Assembly: GCA_951406725.2 (NCBI GenBank)
Contig: OX597818.1
Coordinates: forward strand, 67,518,001 to 67,582,000
Direction: 5' to 3'
DNA: 64,000 bases
From: Octopus vulgaris
Lineage: Eukaryota
A program made the position numbers and the translations under genes. Positions 11,988 to 63,230 of the stretch are shown piece after piece; positions within the stretch are counted from its first letter, which is position 1, and each line of letters begins with the position of its first letter. Under the pieces are notes generated by a model. The model saw only the letters and a program-made list of their open reading frames with translations. It did not search any database and was not told the DNA's origin.

Positions 11988-12076
<89 letters not shown>

Positions 12077-12078
<2 letters not shown>

Positions 12079-12250
12079 AAATATTGAATTTCTAAATCTC
12101 TCGTAGAGACATGTACGGTGGTGGGGCGATAGAATGGTTGTATACTGTCAATCTAACAAGAACGTGACAGTAGGGGGTACACCACCTAGGGCTATACAGC
12201 AGTGGTGTACCTCCTACTGTCACGTTCTTGTTAGATTGACAGTATACAAC

Positions 12251-12257
<7 letters not shown>
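12077..12257 (-). mobile_element. Short foldback copy of the retrozyme-like family at 18454-19206 (no HHR)
   Basis: It carries the same leader as 18454 and 18820. Inverted arms of about 56 bp lie at 12130-12185 and 12202-12257. The element is embedded in (TA)n. Confidence 0.85.
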
Positions 12258-12290
<33 letters not shown>

Positions 12291-15688: not shown

Positions 15689-17938
15689 AGATATGTACAT
15701 GTGAGGGCGAAAACGAAAAAAGAAAAAAAACGAAGTATTTGAAAGCACTTTAAAGAATTAAAATGAAATTATAAACTGATGATATGACGAATTCCTTGTA
15801 TTACTAAAATTCAGAGCTCAGGCATCACCTGTTTGATTGTTTAACCAGATATGTTATTGTCATGTAACAGTCTTAGTGAGAACGGATCTTTTCACTTCTA
15901 TAGTTAAGAGATGAGGAATTATGTACATTATGACAATGTTGTAGATGTGTGACTTAGTATTGTTGGCTGATCTGATGCAGTGCCTGGTCGAGTTAATGAA
16001 GAAAAATGCATTTGTTGGGCTGCGTCGGTTTTTTTACAAATGACAACTGCAATAATTATGTACTAGATAAGTTTACGGAAAGCTTACTGATACAGAAGTA
16101 TGTGACTGATCCACCATAACTGGAAAACAGTGTGCCACATTTGTGTGCTATGCGTATGTAAAGTTCTATGCGTGCATCTATCTATCTTTTGATCCCCTCT
16201 CCGTCGCCAATCTAGTGATTTTGTAATGTACACCGCCAGGAAACTAAGAGTTCCTTATCGATATATAACCAATTCATTTTGGCATAATATGTTTGAAATA
16301 TGCAAGATTTGTTTACCATAAACAAGAGTGACGCCACTTGGGCTACAAATATTGTAAAGTAACTCGGAGTGAAGAAGAATGTCGCCAATTCTTTGTAATG
16401 GAACTTATCCTTTTACCAATTGTTTTGTTTTTATCCTATCCACTATATTACGCGAAATGTCCCTTTATAGTCATTGGTTCTGTCTACTACATTACTTGGG
16501 TTTTCGTGTTTCCGTTCAATCTGTAACTCTTCGAACCGGTATAATTTCCTGTCGGTTGGCTTATTTGTACGCAGTTCGGTTCCGATGTAGAAATATCACA
16601 AACAATATCTGATTCTTCTCAGAGCATAGTTTCAGCCTACAGACGCCAGGGCTATGGACCAATCACGCTCCTGTTGCGCCACTCTTCCCACTGTAGGATT
16701 AAACATTTATAAAATGTATTATTTCTTTTCTTGTCAGTTCTGGCTTTCATTTACTACATCATAACTCATACATTTATTTATTTCTCGCTTTTGTGTAATG
16801 AGATGCTTCATATATAAGAAAGACAAACTACAAACTTCATTTACATGGCTCTATGCTGGGAAAATACCTAACATTTTGCTTCGAGATACTTACTTACAGA
16901 AGCTCATTATACAAGAAGAGGGGATACACTGGGGTGATATACGAACACACACACACACACACACACACAAACACGCACACAAACACACACACAAACACAC
17001 ACCACGCACGCACAGATCCATAAACATTTGGAGGCCTTCATACGCGTGGGCTGCATGCTAGTTGCGGTTTTGTAACTATAACATTTAAAACAGCATGTTT
17101 TAGAATTGTATTTATCAATCGGAATAACAACCATTAGAATACAATTACTTTTGTTGGCAAGATTAATTCCATTTGAATATGATTTTAAAAAAGCTTGTGT
17201 CAAAGGCATTTGTAAAGTTGCCGGTTTTCCGAAGACATTCCTTCTGCAGATTATTAGCTCGATAACTAAAACGGTGGGTAATATTTTTGAGAGATGCCTG
17301 GAAGTAAACAGTGTGAATTAGAGATGTGCAAACCCTATTTTTCAAATTATCTCACTTGTGAGACATTTAGGCCGTTGTTATTGAAACAATTGGTCTTTTT
17401 CGGTTGATCGTTGTTGGACGTATACTCTTTCATTTTTGTACTTGGTCGATCTTTTGAACAATGCATCTATTTTGTGATTCTTCATCAAGGTATAAACGGA
17501 TTGATAGCAATTAGCCGGCTACAAAAATGCAACCTCACTTTAGCATAGCTTGCGCTCGCTGAAGTGTGTATTGTGTTTTACAAGTATTCAAACTCAAGGA
17601 AAGCCACTTGTTACTCAACATATTCTACTTTACATCACGTAACACAGATTTCATAAAAGCAATTTATGTTTCTGAAGATCATAAAGTTTCCATTTCTGAA
17701 GCCGTTTTAATTTCTGATAATCGTAATAATGTCGTGCTTTTCATAAGCCAACAAAGTATTGTTCCATTAACTCCCGAGTATTTTTCGCAGATATGTTGCA
17801 GGAAGAGTCTTATGTTTTCAATGGACATTCTTCATTTTGAAGGCTTCCTTATCTTATCAACAATTCAATTATTAATGCAGCAATTTTGCAGCATTTTCTT
17901 CTGTGTTGAGGCATTTTAAGAAAATGGCAAAATCTATA

Positions 17939-18320
17939 CAGTTCTATATTTAAATGATGAGGAATTATGTACTTAATTTAGATTATTTACATTTCAAGGA
18001 TATTTGTCCTCATCATGTTTGTTGTTAACACAACGTTTCGGCTGATATAACCTCCATCTTTCATATCGTGTAGTGGTTAAGAGCGTGGTCTACTAACCCC
18101 AAGATTCCGAATTCGATTCCAGGCAATGAACTAAAAAAAAATAATAATGATAACAACAACAACAACATCGAAAATACTTTAGGAATGAGAACCCAGGTTC
18201 GAAATTTCCCCCCAAGAAACCTGATGAAGGCTGGAGGGTATATCAGCCGAAACGTTGTGTTAACAACAGAGAAGACGAGGAAAAATATACGTCACATGTC
18301 AATTATCTAAATAATGTGCA
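17939..18320 (+). mobile_element. Family H SINE-like element (inverted tail + tRNA head + HHR tail), copy 2
   Basis: 17939-18063 is an inverted copy of the tail. The head GTGTAGTGGTTAAGAGCGTGG...TTCGATTCC lies at about 18068-18125. The HHR core CTGATGA-A-GGCTG..CAGCC-GAAA-CG-TT-GTGTT lies at 18216-18261. Confidence 0.85.
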
Positions 18321-18679
18321 AAATCTATATTTTCCATTTTTCTTTTCACAATCTAAATTAGCAAAAACTAAACCATATGACGTAAAATATTTCAATAAAA
18401 GGATAAATGAAGTCCGTAAGCTAAAATTTAAATGTTATATCTAAAGATATAGTCAGAAATATTAAATTTATAATTCTCTCATAGAGATATGTACGGTGGT
18501 GGGGCGATAGAATGGTTGTATACTGTCAATCTAACGTGAACGGGACAGTAGGGGGTTACACCACCGCTGTTTAGCCCTATGAAGCATCGACGCTTCCTGA
18601 TGGCTTCGACACATTTTTCCTGTGTCCATATATACATATAACGAAGGGGAGACAAACACCCCCAGCAGCCAGAACATCA

Positions 18680-18726
18680 TCTAAAGACACGCATGTTTCA
18701 GGATCATTGTCCATCATCGGTCTAGA
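18680..18726 (-). ncRNA. Type I minimal hammerhead ribozyme (CCGAUGA core variant), unit 1
   Basis: Minus strand: TCTAGA-CCGATGA-TGGA-CAATGA-TCCT-GAAA-CATGCGTG-TC-TTTAGA. Confidence 0.75.
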
Positions 18727-19043
18727 GTAGCAAACGCCCGCCAGCCGAGAATATCTGTCCCGATTCGCAAATGTATATATCTAATTTTCAGTGAAGTTTA
18801 TTCACTGATTACCAAAATCAGAAATTTTAAATTTCTAAATCACTCATAGAGATATGTACGGTGGTGGGGCGATAGAATGGTTGTATACTGTCAATCTAAC
18901 GTGAACGTGACAGTAGGGGGTTACACACCGCCTGTTTAGCCCTAGGAAGCATCGACGCTTCCTGCTGGCTTCGACACATTTTTCCTGTGTCCTTATATAC
19001 ATTTACGAAGGGGAGACAAACACCCCCAGCAGCCAGGCCTGCA

Positions 19044-19090
19044 TCTAGAGACATGCATGTTTCAGGATCATTGTCCATCATCGGTCTAGA
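19044..19090 (-). ncRNA. Type I minimal hammerhead ribozyme (CCGAUGA core variant), unit 2
   Basis: Minus strand: TCTAGA-CCGATGA-TGGA-CAATGA-TCCT-GAAA-CATGCATG-TC-TCTAGA. It has a 6-bp stem I, a palindromic stem III and a GUC site. Confidence 0.8.
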
Positions 19091-19473
19091 GTAGCAGTAG
19101 CCCGCCAGCTGTTGATATCTATCCCGATACTTCCTAGGGCTAAACAGCGGTGGTGTAACCCCCTATTGTCATGTTCACGTTAGATTGACAGTATACAGCC
19201 ATTCTAAAGATATAGTTATATAGAAACCGAGTTCAAAATGAAATAGAATTTTCAAATTTTTCATGAAAACATGTTCTGTGTTCTAACTTCCCCAAGGTCG
19301 ATTTTGTCTTCCGGGGGTCTATAAATTAAGTACCAGTGAGAAACGGATTTCCACTAGTCCCCTCTCGCCAAATGTCCAGACCTTGTGCCTTTAGTAAAAG
19401 GGATAACTATACCTGAATGTACTGTATAAGCTGCAAATACACACACACGCACACACACACACACACATATATA

Positions 19474-19513
<40 letters not shown>

Positions 19514-22204
19514 TATTCCCACGCATATAAATATTATTCTATTTATGGGAGGAGCCCTTGTTTCTCATCTCGCATGATGATTTTTGCTACATATATCTGT
19601 GTGATATATTGTTATAATTCATGGTGGTCATTTTCTACCCCCTCCTCCTTGAACTACATAAAACTGCTTCCCTATGCCACCTGCTGTCTTGAGTCTGCAC
19701 CGTCTCTCACTACACTGCATGCTATAGGCAACATTCCTAATCTTACAGTCAGCCTATGGATTCATCCTACATACTATACAGTTGTTATCCGCAAATGGGG
19801 GCATTTTGAATGGAAATGTTCTACAATGGAGGCCTTTCGAATGAATCTGTTCTACAGATCAGGGATTTTATGGGTGTCCCTGGCCTTTCAACTACTTCAA
19901 TCCATAGAGGTACTTTAAGATTTTCCTAAAGAGGTATGCGAGTTCACTGGATGGGGTAGCATTGACGATCATGTGTACGTCTGTCGTTGTGTGTGTGCAT
20001 GCGTGTTGTGTATACCAATATGCACAAAGATTTCACTGCATGCATGGCTAGGTACTTGTATGTGTGTACAAGAAATGTCCGCTCAGATGTCAGGAACAAC
20101 GATACACTCTCCTTTTAACACTTATTTTCAGCCGACATGTTTTCCCTTCATCCAATATGCAGACATCTTCGCGGAGAGCGAACCTATTAGAAATTACAAT
20201 TCGAGCTCCCCTTGTTTTAGATCCCAGATTTTCTAACCAAAAAGATATTTAGTATTTTCTATGCTGGGTATAAAATATCTAAGTATTACATGATCACCAT
20301 AGTTACATTTATAACAGAAATCTAAACAAGATATCTCCACATTGATTTGGTTTTTCTACCCTAAGTCACAGAGCATATTCTTTCCTTTTTAGTAATATTT
20401 CTAACAACAATCCAGAATCCATAACCGGGAATATGTTGATATAAGACTCAGCTGATATCTAACCAGTATTAATTTAGACAATGGTTTACTTCACTGCATC
20501 GGAGTTCCGTTCAACAGTCTTAAGTGCATACTTGTTATCTTAAGTAGAGAAGTGCCCTCATTATATTTATCCGAATGTTCCTTACCAGAGATACCATTGT
20601 TACATTGTTCCATCACTATAATCAATAGAATATGAAGCAGAATATTGAAATAGTTCTTTGGAGGAAATAGATTTTCCTAAGATTTGAATCTGTTGAAATT
20701 GCGTAAAGCAACGAGAAACACAAAACAACTTTGTCATATTTCAGCAATATTTTGTTATTATAATGAAATACGCATTCTCCATCATGATATCCCACAGATA
20801 TATCATTATAAGAATAAACACGAATATCAAAAGTAAGGATACGCCAAGTTTTCACATAGACATATTTACTTTTCGTAAGAATGAATAGAACCACGCCATA
20901 TTCTTTTGTGCTACATATATATTGTGAGAGTAAAATTTCTTAAACATATGAACACACTAAATAATATCCTTCGTAGCATCAGTAATTGTCCTTCATTTAT
21001 ATACAACTTCATATTACACAGATACTACTTATGTTGGTTCTTTCTCTTTTCGTCAAATTTTCCTTGTTTCCTTGAGATTTCCTACAATCATATTTCAGAA
21101 TCCAAAAGTGTCTTCATTGTTTCCCAATCGTGTTTCTTGCACCGAGGCAATCGAGAAATGAATTAGAAAAGATTCTGCTGCTATTTCTAGTTAATTACTT
21201 GACTAACGAATCGCTGCATCATGAGCATGATTTGGATTGTTATTAATAGTTAATTATAAAAAATATAATTACCATTCTTTAGAGGCAAATCGTATAATGC
21301 TGTGAGAGAAAACCAGAATCTGAAACGTTGTAGATTATTGGAATATTTCGCAGAAACAGAATTAACAACCAAGAGCTGAAGATTATGCTTCGATGGGTTT
21401 CGGAAAATAAAGATAAAGTTGTTATTCAAAGAATGCATATATTGTAGTGGAAGATGTGTTTGTGATAACACAAATGTCTAAAAGACTCAAAGAAGTGGGG
21501 CAAAGATTGCAAGAAATCTTTGTGTTAACGGTCAAATTGATTTAATGCAATCTGAACATGACAGAATTTGCTTGCCGCAAGTAGCACATAAAATGCGATA
21601 TGACTTTATTAAATAAATGCGCAGAACCATTGGGTGGAAATGTCGTTTATAATACTGAAAAATTGTCATAAAATACAACTAAGCATAAATTGAAGTTACA
21701 TTGATTGGTTAGATTCTGTTCGGTATTCACAAAATGGTGGATTAAATGAGTGTATGTTAGTTTAAAAAGCGGTTGTACATCTGCCTCATATGGTACAGTC
21801 CAAACTGTTATGTTTCGTTGAGGTTATATGTCCCAAAAGAAGTCCTACTCGAACACAACGATAATCAGATGTTACCTGTACTTTCAACTGAGTATATTGT
21901 CCAAGGTGAAATACCTGCTTCTACTGACGGCTGCATGTTAATGTTGGAAGGGATTCAACTGCGACTTTAATCCAGTAGCGGTTAACATCGAGACATATAT
22001 TTATATATGCGTATATTCATAAACATTCGCATACAATGTTGTATATATCAATTAAAACTTATTAGCTATCGATCAAAGAACCAAAGCAATTTCGCGCCTT
22101 GAAATGATAATATTGATCCCTTTTCTTGACGCCGGCAGCGAAAAGCAGCCGAGAACTGGCGAGCCAAGGAAGAGGGGACCAAACACGAGAAAGTGAACAT
22201 GAGA

Positions 22205-31698: not shown

Positions 31699-31720
31699 TT
31701 ATATATATATAGTATATGTT

Positions 31721-32415
31721 GCTATGTTAGAAAGAATTAGTCTAGCGAAGGAAAAAGGACAGATTACAATTGAAAAGTTTCAAAGTCCGACAGAGTGACA
31801 ATAGTGAGTTGAAAGCGAAAAATAGAGAAAAGGAGGAGGGAGAGACGAGCATAAAGATAAGTAGACGAGGACTTACGGACCAGCAAACTGGATAATATTT
31901 ATCTCTGGTTCATGAATTTAAGAAACAGAATAAGTAACGTTTCTTCGTTTTTTGTTTTCAGAGAGATGGCCACACTAGCCTGCAAAAGATATAGGAATGT
32001 ATGAGCATAGTAATACGTTTCTATGTGAGAAAGAATTAGTCCAGTGAATGAAAAATGGACAAGCTTACATTTGTAAAGTTTCGAAAGTCGACAGAGTGAC
32101 GATAGAGTGCTGGAGGAGAGAAAGATAAAGTGAGAGGGAAGGACAGAGGAATATAAGGATGATTAGACAGTGACTTACGAACCGGCAAGCTGGAAGGTAT
32201 AGATCTCCAGATAATGAATTAAAGAAAGAGAAACAGTTTCACGTTCTTTTCAGTGAGATGGCCACACAAGCCCGCAAATGATATTGGTAGATATGAGTAT
32301 AGTAATACGTAGCTATGTTAGAAAGAATTAGTCGAACGAAGGAAAAAGAAAACGCTTTCATTAGTAAAGTTTCTCAGTCCGAGAGGGCGACGATAGAGAG
32401 TTGGAGAAGGAATGA
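31721..32415. repeat. Diverged tandem repeat, ~290-300 bp unit, ~2.3 copies
   Basis: CTATGT.AGAAAGAATTAGTC recurs at about 31722, 32022 and 32313. GAGATGGCCACAC and TATGAG.ATAGTAATACGT each recur twice. Confidence 0.85.
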
Positions 32416-41498: not shown

Positions 41499-41651
41499 GA
41501 TGATGATGATGATGATGATGATGATGTTGATGAAGAAGAGGAGAAGGAGGAGGATATCGTAGGCAGCAGGTAGCAAAGCCTGCTTTTTTATGCAAGGGTC
41601 CAAGACTTCCACAAGGCCAGATGTAAAAGGCTGATAATGTTATGATGATAT

Positions 41652-41700
41652 CAATAACAATAATAATAATAATAATAATAATAACAACAACAACAACAAC

Positions 41701-41732
<32 letters not shown>

Positions 41733-41760
41733 TAATAATAATAACAATAATAATAATAAC

Positions 41761-41833
<73 letters not shown>
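41652..41833 (+). repeat. (TAA)n/(CAA)n microsatellite
   Basis: Direct reading. It forms the 5' flank of the Dong-like LINE. Confidence 0.97.
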
Positions 41834-41834
<1 letters not shown>

Positions 41835-42915
41835 GGAGGAAGGAAGGAAAACTGATCCAGATAGCGGCAAAACACGAGCAAAACAAAAAACTGTTCTCAG
41901 TATTTAAGGAAGCTGACAAATACAAACAAGAAATCATACCACCTAATAAACATGAAGAAGAAGAAGAAGAAGATGAAGAAACAACAAAAGCTATAAAACA
42001 AATGAAATCCAAACTAAAAACAGAACAGCAACGAACCATGATAAAACGATGGCAAGAAAAGCCCTTCATGGTAAATACTGCACTAAACTAAACGCAAAAG
42101 AAATAGACAAAGAAAAATCCCAGCAATGGTTGAGAAGCTCAGGACTCAAAGCAGAAACAGAGGGATTTTTAATTGCAGCACAAGACCAAAGCTTCCCCAC
42201 CAGAAATTACCAAAAACATGTAATGAAAAGAAATATTACAAGTAACTGCAGAATATGTGGAGATGGACAAGAAACAATAAATCATATTATCTCTAGCTGC
42301 CCAGTCCTGGCTAAGAAGGAATATATTCACAGACATGACAGAGTTGGAACCTACATACATTGGAAGCTATGCCAACATTATGGAATAACAACAGAAAAAA
42401 GATGGTATAGGCACACACCAGAAAAGGTCACAGAAAACGAGAAAGCAACCATACTCTGGGATATGCCGATACACACAGATAGAGAAATTAAGGCCAACAG
42501 ACCAGATATAATTGTCAGAGATCATGAAGAAAAAAATGCTTTTTAATTGATGTATCAATACCGGCAGATGACAACGTGTCTCTAAAAGAAATGGAGAAAC
42601 TCTCAAAATACAAAGACCTGGAAATAGAGGTAACTAGAATGTGGAATCTGAAAACAGAAACAATTCCTATCATAGTAGGTGCATTAGTCATGATAAAAAA
42701 ATATTCAGACAAATACATAACAAAAACACCAGGACTTACAAACACATATAACATACAGAAAATTGCACTACTAGGCACTGCCCACATCCTACGCAGAACA
42801 CTTTCCATACAATAACCATCAGAGCATCACAACAAATCACAGCACATACCCAAGGCACACAGAGCTGCGCTCGGTAGTGAAGTGGAAGCACGCTATAAAA
42901 ATAAAAATAAAACTA

Positions 42916-55519: not shown

Positions 55520-55554
55520 ATCCAATGTTTCGGATTCAATCCTTCGTCAGGGGC
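55520..55554 (-). ncRNA. Degenerate minimal hammerhead motif
   Basis: Minus strand: GCCC-CTGACGA-A-GGAT-TGA-ATCC-GAAA-CA-TT-GGAT. The stem III CG has become CA and stem I has a mismatch. Confidence 0.5.
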
Positions 55555-62671: not shown

Positions 62672-63230
62672 CGGCGGTGAACTGGCAGAATCGTCAGCAC
62701 GCCGGGCGAAATGCGTTGCCATATTTCGTTTGCCGTTACGCTCTGTGTTCAAATTCCGCCGAGGTCGACTTTGCTTTTCATCCTTTCGGGTTCTATAAAT
62801 TAAGTACCAGTTACACACTGGGGTCAATTTAATCGACTTAATCCGTTTGTCTGCCCTTGTTTGTCCCCTCTGTATTTAGCACCTCAAGGTGTAGTAAAGA
62901 AATAGGTATTTCGTCTGTCTTTACGTTCTGAGTTCAAATTCCACCAAGGTCGACTTTTTCTTTCATCCTTTCGATGTCGATTAAATAAGTACCAGTTACG
63001 CACTGGAGTCGATATAATCGACTTAATCTGTTTGTCTGTTCTTGTTAGCCCCCTGTGGCAATAAAGAAATGAGAAACGTTAGCACGTCGAGCGAAGTGTT
63101 TATCAATATTTCGTCTGTCTTTGCATCATTTTGGGGTCGATAAGTTAGGTACCAGTTGCATAGTGAGGAAGATCTTATCGACTCGCCCCCTCCCCCAAAA
63201 TTCCAGGCCTTTTGTCTATTGAAGAAAAGA
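62672..63230 (+). mobile_element. Tandem/partial multimer of SINE family B
   Basis: A full copy to about 62903, a 5'-truncated copy to about 63070, and a third degenerate piece. Confidence 0.88.

Follow-up and report, generated by a model that had tools for sequence, protein, structure and literature searches.

How does a non-coding repeat that carries hammerhead ribozyme motifs return to an animal genome: as a circle released by cutting, or as RNA that was never cut? The question is raised by an insertion at 18454..19206 of the window, by which we mean the whole 64,000-nt stretch of Octopus vulgaris DNA analysed here (contig OX597818.1, positions 67,518,001 to 67,582,000). The reading we favour, with a probability of roughly 0.6, is a likely slow-cutting retrozyme with a U4C core, probably copied by a Penelope-type element (PLE) from a long, uncut, multi-unit RNA.

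Architecture of the insertion and its variant hammerheads

Monomer positions are numbered as q, equal to 19050 minus the window position (q1 = 19049). Read along the minus strand, the insertion consists of inverted q96-177 followed by q286-364, q1-364 and q1-232. An initial annotation of this DNA had described two full repeat units; it comprises in fact one full unit and two partial ones, of 79 nt and 232 nt, and the two direct-repeat units in the window are spaced at 364/365 nt and are 89-93% alike. The same annotation had reported an inverted end of about 80 bp and a 10-bp duplication, both confirmed here as an 82-nt arm (93% identical to unit 1 and 90% to unit 2) and a target-site duplication of 10-14 bp. 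The duplicated sequence, AAGATATAGT, flanks the insertion on both sides, with an exact match of 14 nt, 10 nt of it outside the element; its overlap with the element ends, a microhomology, is 4 nt (TCTA) at one and 1 nt at the other. That the insertion is non-coding was borne out, the longest ATG-initiated ORF being 61 amino acids. The GC content of the 364-nt monomer is 44.5%, and a 364-nt period is also present at loci L002, L011, L044, L071 and L098.

18454..19206 (-), whole two-armed insertion
18440..18453 (+), left target-site duplication, matching over 14 nt, with 18444-18453 as the minimal 10 nt
19203..19216 (+), right target-site duplication, sharing its first 4 nt with the element end (q174-177)
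19125..19206 (+), inverted arm q96-177, which stops at the first of the two fixed 3' ends of the family (q~178)
19050..19128 (-), 5'-truncated partial unit q286-364, haplotype X, without TATA box
18686..19049 (-), 364-nt monomer between the predicted cuts

Two minus-strand type I hammerheads with GUC sites 364 nt apart had been annotated, and these stand, the GUC sites ending at 19050 (unit 2) and 18686 (unit 1). What had been overlooked is that both cores read CCGAUGA (U4C) rather than the consensus CUGAUGA, and that the base of helix II is U.U in both units, with no G-C.

19044..19090 (-), unit 2 hammerhead: core CCGATGA at 19084-19078; U.U at 10.1/11.1; helix III palindromic; cut predicted at 19050/19049
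18680..18726 (-), unit 1 hammerhead: core CCGATGA at 18720-18714; helix I with one private G.U; cut predicted at 18686/18685
18673..18677 (-), cluster of four substitutions breaking the distal helix I of unit 1

With U4C, and with U.U or A-U at 10.1/11.1, the element departs from the consensus core (CUGANGA...GAAA...UH with G10.1-C11.1) and therefore counts as a variant hammerhead. No Rfam hammerhead family matches 17900-19300, even at E<=10, and in an Rfam search of the whole window the 150 rows listed, of 196, were microsatellite-driven matches of miRNA type. The motifs had also been compared with the minimal hammerheads of retrozymes and PLEs; their architecture is instead canonical, with a helix I of 6 bp, a helix II of 3-4 bp and a CAAUGA loop, which sets them apart from the minimal type as described in PMC4209133. 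Of the two unit 1 substitutions that had been read as leaving G.U pairs, the private G.U in helix I is present, whereas the stem-III G is the family-majority allele (93%), and it is unit 2 that carries the minor one.

Several other repeats lie in the window. A 101-nt inverted repeat (17964-18064 and 18221-18324), very deeply covered in DNA-like runs, includes a CTGATGA minimal-type hammerhead motif at 18221 (+) and is probably the end of another Penelope-type family. A further minimal hammerhead-like motif with a CTGACGA core lies at 55550 (-). There are tandem repeats of 292 bp (2.4 copies, 31708-32409) and of 185 bp (62722-63054), the latter presumably resembling an octopus SINE, and LINE-like ORF fragments with a zinc-binding motif stand beside AAT repeats at 41627-42543.

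Core variants, covariation and predicted folds

U4C is a fixed state of this family. An exact 31-nt pattern matched 104 sites genome-wide, on many contigs (reversed control, 0), and of the 100 listed, counted by eye, 87 have CCG at the start of the core, 9 CTG and 4 CCA; the 9 CTG and 4 CCA are compatible with CpG decay (p=0.27). Looser patterns found 1,015 CCGANGA motifs (control 37) and, with all cores allowed at hammerhead spacing, 7,265 motifs (control 294). The canonical CTGANGA core occurs in only 1,438 of these (control 15), so consensus-based counts of animal ribozymes are probably too low. Among the first 100 listed matches to the spacing pattern, 70 start with TTGA (U3-A8 or U3.G8). 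The roughly 1,000 U4C motifs span several subfamilies and combine U4C with a helix II base other than G-C, and a single family shows both CCGACGA and TTGATAA cores (L022, L160).

The conservation of the stems across genomic copies, which the initial annotation had made a condition of its reading, was checked and found. In 25 motifs chosen from 70 distinct ones to represent subfamilies, 11 of 14 pairs changed on both sides, including C3-G8/U3-A8 (15/10), and 95.1% of cells were paired, compared with 74.1% after shuffling and 26-50% in slid controls. G5, A6, A9, G12-A15.1 and the GUC are invariant in all 25 aligned motifs, some of these letters having been demanded by the collecting pattern. Pairing of helix I was likewise part of the collecting filter, and helices II and III were unfiltered; because of that filter and the relatedness of the sequences, the covariation is to be read as support and not as a probability.

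Do such hammerheads cut? U4C considerably reduces activity in vitro yet allows viroid infectivity, and U10.1.U11.1 and U3-A8 exist in natural hammerheads, as Perreault et al. (2011, PMC3088659) describe. Each of the three departures seen here has a described counterpart, with the difference that U4C appears in that account as a viroid variant and here in about 1,000 genomic motifs. Combined with U.U or A-U at 10.1/11.1, U4C could abolish cleavage. On one alternative reading the hammerhead has stopped cutting, its fold serves the PLE protein as a signal for binding or folding, and the element would effectively be a PLE-dependent, SINE-like repeat. The coincidence of two departures near the core speaks for this, as does the report that the anole element PAc transposes in vitro without cleavage (PMC11167929). 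Yet the invariance of core letters and GUC and the covariation of C3-G8 to U3-A8 are what selection for catalysis predicts, and U4C and U10.1.U11.1 each keep activity in known ribozymes (PMC3088659); we give a non-cutting hammerhead little credence.

The monomer is strongly self-paired in prediction. Its fold has z = -6.3, with 0 of 100 shuffles equally stable, and as a circle it is 68% paired, whereas the isolated 56-nt hammerhead motifs fold no better than shuffles (z -0.95 and -0.76). The earlier proposal that the hammerheads work as dimers fits the models: in all three transcript models the dimer fold is predicted to be favoured, lying 5.8-8.8 kcal/mol above the minimum compared with 13.5-20.8 kcal/mol for two monomeric folds, and the monomeric active fold of unit 1 would cost 9.6 kcal/mol. 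The predicted probability of an inter-unit helix III (0.96, 1.0 and 0.02 in the three models) depends on the transcript ends.

Those folds also suit a classical retrozyme cycle, in which dimers cut efficiently, 364-nt monomers are ligated to circles, and a PLE reverse transcriptase rolls round them to make tandems; the unit size, too, fits that of the mussel retrozymes, 350-390 bp, that yield circles (PMC7229834). The octopus family is known here from genome sequence. Family-like contigs occur in four runs guessed to be RNA, but contigs cannot show ends, strand or circles, and a depth drop at the cut site is no evidence because DNA-like runs show the same drop. At the insertion site itself, a contig of run X18 reads across the right junction of the occupied site, contigs of runs X18 and X19 extend 20 nt into the element on the left, and no empty site was found among the joints listed.

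Template, promoter and insertion footprint

The composition of the insertion bears on the template. Rolling copying of one circle should give identical units, and so mixed units argue against a single-circle template. The partial unit (haplotype X) differs from the full unit (haplotype Y) at 9 of 79 sites, six of which carry alleles common family-wide, and X and Y occur together again at the unlinked locus L002, 50 Mb away. Across the family, 14 insertions have two independent copies of q296-317, and by eye 8 of these are mixed and 6 uniform; this count leaves out L029, L070 and L081, where the second copy is an ORF1 duplication, L032 and L053 (one copy), L042 (two neighbouring insertions), L061-L063 (segmental duplicates) and L065 (unclear row), and takes the overlapping loci L017/L064 and L031/L068 once each. 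The uniform insertions, and the rare alleles that adjacent L002 units have in common, are what the classical cycle would leave behind. The six family-wide polymorphic sites within 79 nt, the mixed majority and the weakened core count against it, and we regard that cycle as rather unlikely; the circle proposed as template of this insertion, in particular, sits badly with its mixed haplotypes. Mixed units are most simply explained by a heterogeneous multimer that was never cut; successive insertions, switching of template or gene conversion could also produce them. RNA circles may exist as a by-product.

Where transcription of such a multimer would begin is indicated by a second mobile element. 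An ORF1-only retroelement (1.7-1.8 kb, about 450 amino acids, with a CCHC knuckle and look-alikes that include ZCCHC3-like proteins) interrupts other copies of the family at q297-313, about 27 nt behind the TATA box. It was found at L064-L070 and L074-L119, makes duplications of 11-17 nt and forms tandem piles; a first look gave 13,355 candidates genome-wide, many of them intact, and it hits several retrozyme families as well as LTR-like promoters. In 23 of 28 parsed insertions a TATA-like box lies 22-36 nt ahead of the start of the duplication, compared with 0-2 in seven other distance ranges, although the 23 are not independent because there are only about eight target types (3 of 31 rows, with duplications below 9 nt, were dropped, and a few rows are mis-delimited). 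From these insertion sites only, we infer an internal transcription start near 18752, behind TATATA.

18774..18779 (-), TATA-like box (TATATA), putative internal promoter, from sequence and the position of ORF1-element insertions elsewhere
18737..18752 (-), q298-313, putative transcription start and stretch duplicated by the ORF1 element, unoccupied here, haplotype Y

A protein-coding retrozyme, with 2.1-kb relatives as the parent element, was considered and rejected, as the ORF unit exists without ribozymes, terminates in AATAAA plus A, makes locus-specific duplications of 11-17 nt and is found in unrelated targets.

The excision of a 364-nt RNA that had been suggested for this locus holds as far as the predicted GUC cuts are concerned, which are indeed 364 nt apart. 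The upstream partial unit, truncated at q286, has no TATA box, and only the unit 1 ribozyme lies downstream of the putative promoter. With one ribozyme past the promoter and a damaged distal helix I, the locus is unlikely to release the 364-nt RNA by means of its own promoter; it would probably need read-through from outside, and this copy is probably a dead end.

The ends of the copies point to the enzyme. We collected 79 de-duplicated 3' ends from 60 loci, with a query that favoured copies reaching q233: the interval q170-180 holds 29 of them and q227-237 holds 37, a further 5 coincide with the ORF1 insertion site, and the other 8 lie outside these places. Thus 66 of 79 fall at two fixed points, q~178 and q~233, 55 nt apart, while 5' starts are scattered (n=78). 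In two-armed insertions one arm commonly ends at q~178 and the other at q~233. By eye, target-site duplications of at least 10 bp in non-microsatellite DNA were present at 5 of 27 loci, all two-armed, and 11 of the 27 had an (AT)n flank. A second copy in the window (12074-12258) consists of q117-233 plus inverted q104-178, has no ribozyme, lies between AT microsatellites and shows the same two fixed ends.

18815..18840 (-), AT-rich hairpin (q210-235), located at the second fixed 3' end of the family (q~233)
18453..18508 (-), 55-nt 'tail' (q178-232) separating the fixed ends, on one arm only

PLE insertions are described as having a one-sided tail and an inverted, 5'-truncated copy (PMC8557442), and for PAc two internal reverse transcription starts and insertion of uncleaved RNA have been described (PMC11167929). 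The octopus family resembles PLEs, including PAc and the non-autonomous MRC1, in having two fixed 3' ends, a tail on one side, an inverted arm truncated at its 5' end, targets in AT-rich and microsatellite DNA and a hammerhead within the repeat; it differs in having no ORF and in its 55-nt tail, longer than the 30-40 nt reported for PLE tails. Fixed 3' ends, inverted arms and the (AT)n bias argue for mobilisation of PLE type, in keeping with the initial annotation, and a Penelope-type element is likely to paste the 364-nt repeat into the genome.

Intact Neptune-like PLEs exist in the genome, and we looked for an autonomous partner by shared sequence. None of 30 Neptune-like loci examined has unit sequence, none of 8 longer PLE loci shares the unit (best match 20 nt), no autonomous PLE is joined to the unit in 334 flanks, and no ORF with RT plus GIY-YIG was found joined to it. 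Two young Neptune-like families (L191-L198, L124), with ORFs of 1,312 and at least 1,025 amino acids, were rejected as partners, having no sequence in common with the unit; the 1,312-aa family carries, by eye, a hammerhead-like CTGATGC motif in its pseudo-LTR (pLTR). A degenerate Neptune-like remnant 460 bp from the element, at 19667-19972 (-), corresponds to an RT-endonuclease linker (29% identity, with stops) and was treated as unrelated.

Could the unit be the pLTR of an autonomous PLE that our searches did not find, its copies being 5'-truncated remnants? Every insertion hallmark is PLE-like, many vertebrate retrozymes match pLTRs, and the genome searches scored the best 40 candidates. Against this stand the continuous q364-to-q1 tandems without an ORF and the 334 flanks, in which the RT-less ORF1 element is the only shared joined sequence besides SINE-like flanks and segmental duplicates. 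We consider a pLTR origin highly improbable.

The slow-cutting retrozyme copied from uncut RNA remains our preferred account, and its steps would be as follows. A source array would be transcribed from the TATA promoter inside a unit, starting near q298, about 66 nt before the cut. The hammerhead would fold best with helix III paired between neighbouring units and cut slowly, which would leave part of the RNA multimeric, while part may become 364-nt monomers or circles. A PLE protein acting in trans would nick AT-rich DNA, and reverse transcription would start once on each target strand, at the internal RNA positions q~233 and q~178. Joining of the two 5'-truncated cDNAs would produce the inverted arm, the one-sided 55-nt tail and the 10-14-bp duplication.

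Relation to known retrozymes and meaning for the family

Metazoan non-LTR retrozymes, as described by Cervera and de la Peña (2020, PMC7229834), share with the octopus element tandem units with one type I hammerhead each, the non-coding and self-paired monomer, target-site duplications of more than 4 bp, coexisting PLEs and a low GC content (under 45% for the 364-nt unit). The U.U at the helix II base has a counterpart in the axolotl HHR_Amex2 of the same study. In contrast to the retrozymes described there, the octopus family has a fixed U4C core and copies that are mostly dispersed, one- or two-armed and with fixed ends, without long arrays; its mixed haplotypes also set it against the circle-template proposal made in that work. 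The genomic criteria checked were a unit of about 150-450 bp, one type I hammerhead, GC below 50%, dispersal and self-pairing, and by these the element is a metazoan non-LTR retrozyme, a variant one by its core.

Vertebrate retrozymes have been argued to be non-autonomous PLE derivatives, many of them matching pLTRs, and of 9 Xenopus dimers only 1 underwent cleavage in vitro (Li, Clavereau and Pollet, bioRxiv 10.64898/2026.07.22.740005). Dependence on PLEs and dispersed monomers are common to both cases; the vertebrate argument, as presented there, draws on co-occurrence and pLTR similarity, ours on an insertion footprint without a pLTR match. That study used canonical and minimal type I models, and its four invertebrates are described as three insects and a coral; models of these two kinds would probably miss a U4C core. 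Among the papers that our literature searches listed, none was found to describe this family or any retrozyme from a cephalopod. The initial annotation's suggestion that the family may be undescribed agrees with those searches, but the retrozyme class to which it belongs has already been described in both studies (PMC7229834; bioRxiv 10.64898/2026.07.22.740005).

The return of retrozymes to the genome has so far been a matter of hypothesis, with a circle as template and a PLE supplying the enzyme. This family offers a PLE footprint at nucleotide level together with haplotype markers, making both the enzyme and the choice between circular and linear templates directly testable, and it places a core variant cited from viroids in about 1,000 animal genomic motifs, where it is fixed. 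We put forward tentatively, as a possibility we still think doubtful, that thousands of retrozyme hammerheads in this genome have been tuned down (by U4C, U3-A8, U3.G8 or a mismatched helix II base), sparing uncut multimers for Penelope-type insertion. If so, the ribozyme would govern how much of the RNA becomes circles and how much stays as substrate for transposition. Standard searches would not see this class, and its promoter would in turn be parasitised by an ORF1-only retroelement that targets start sites.
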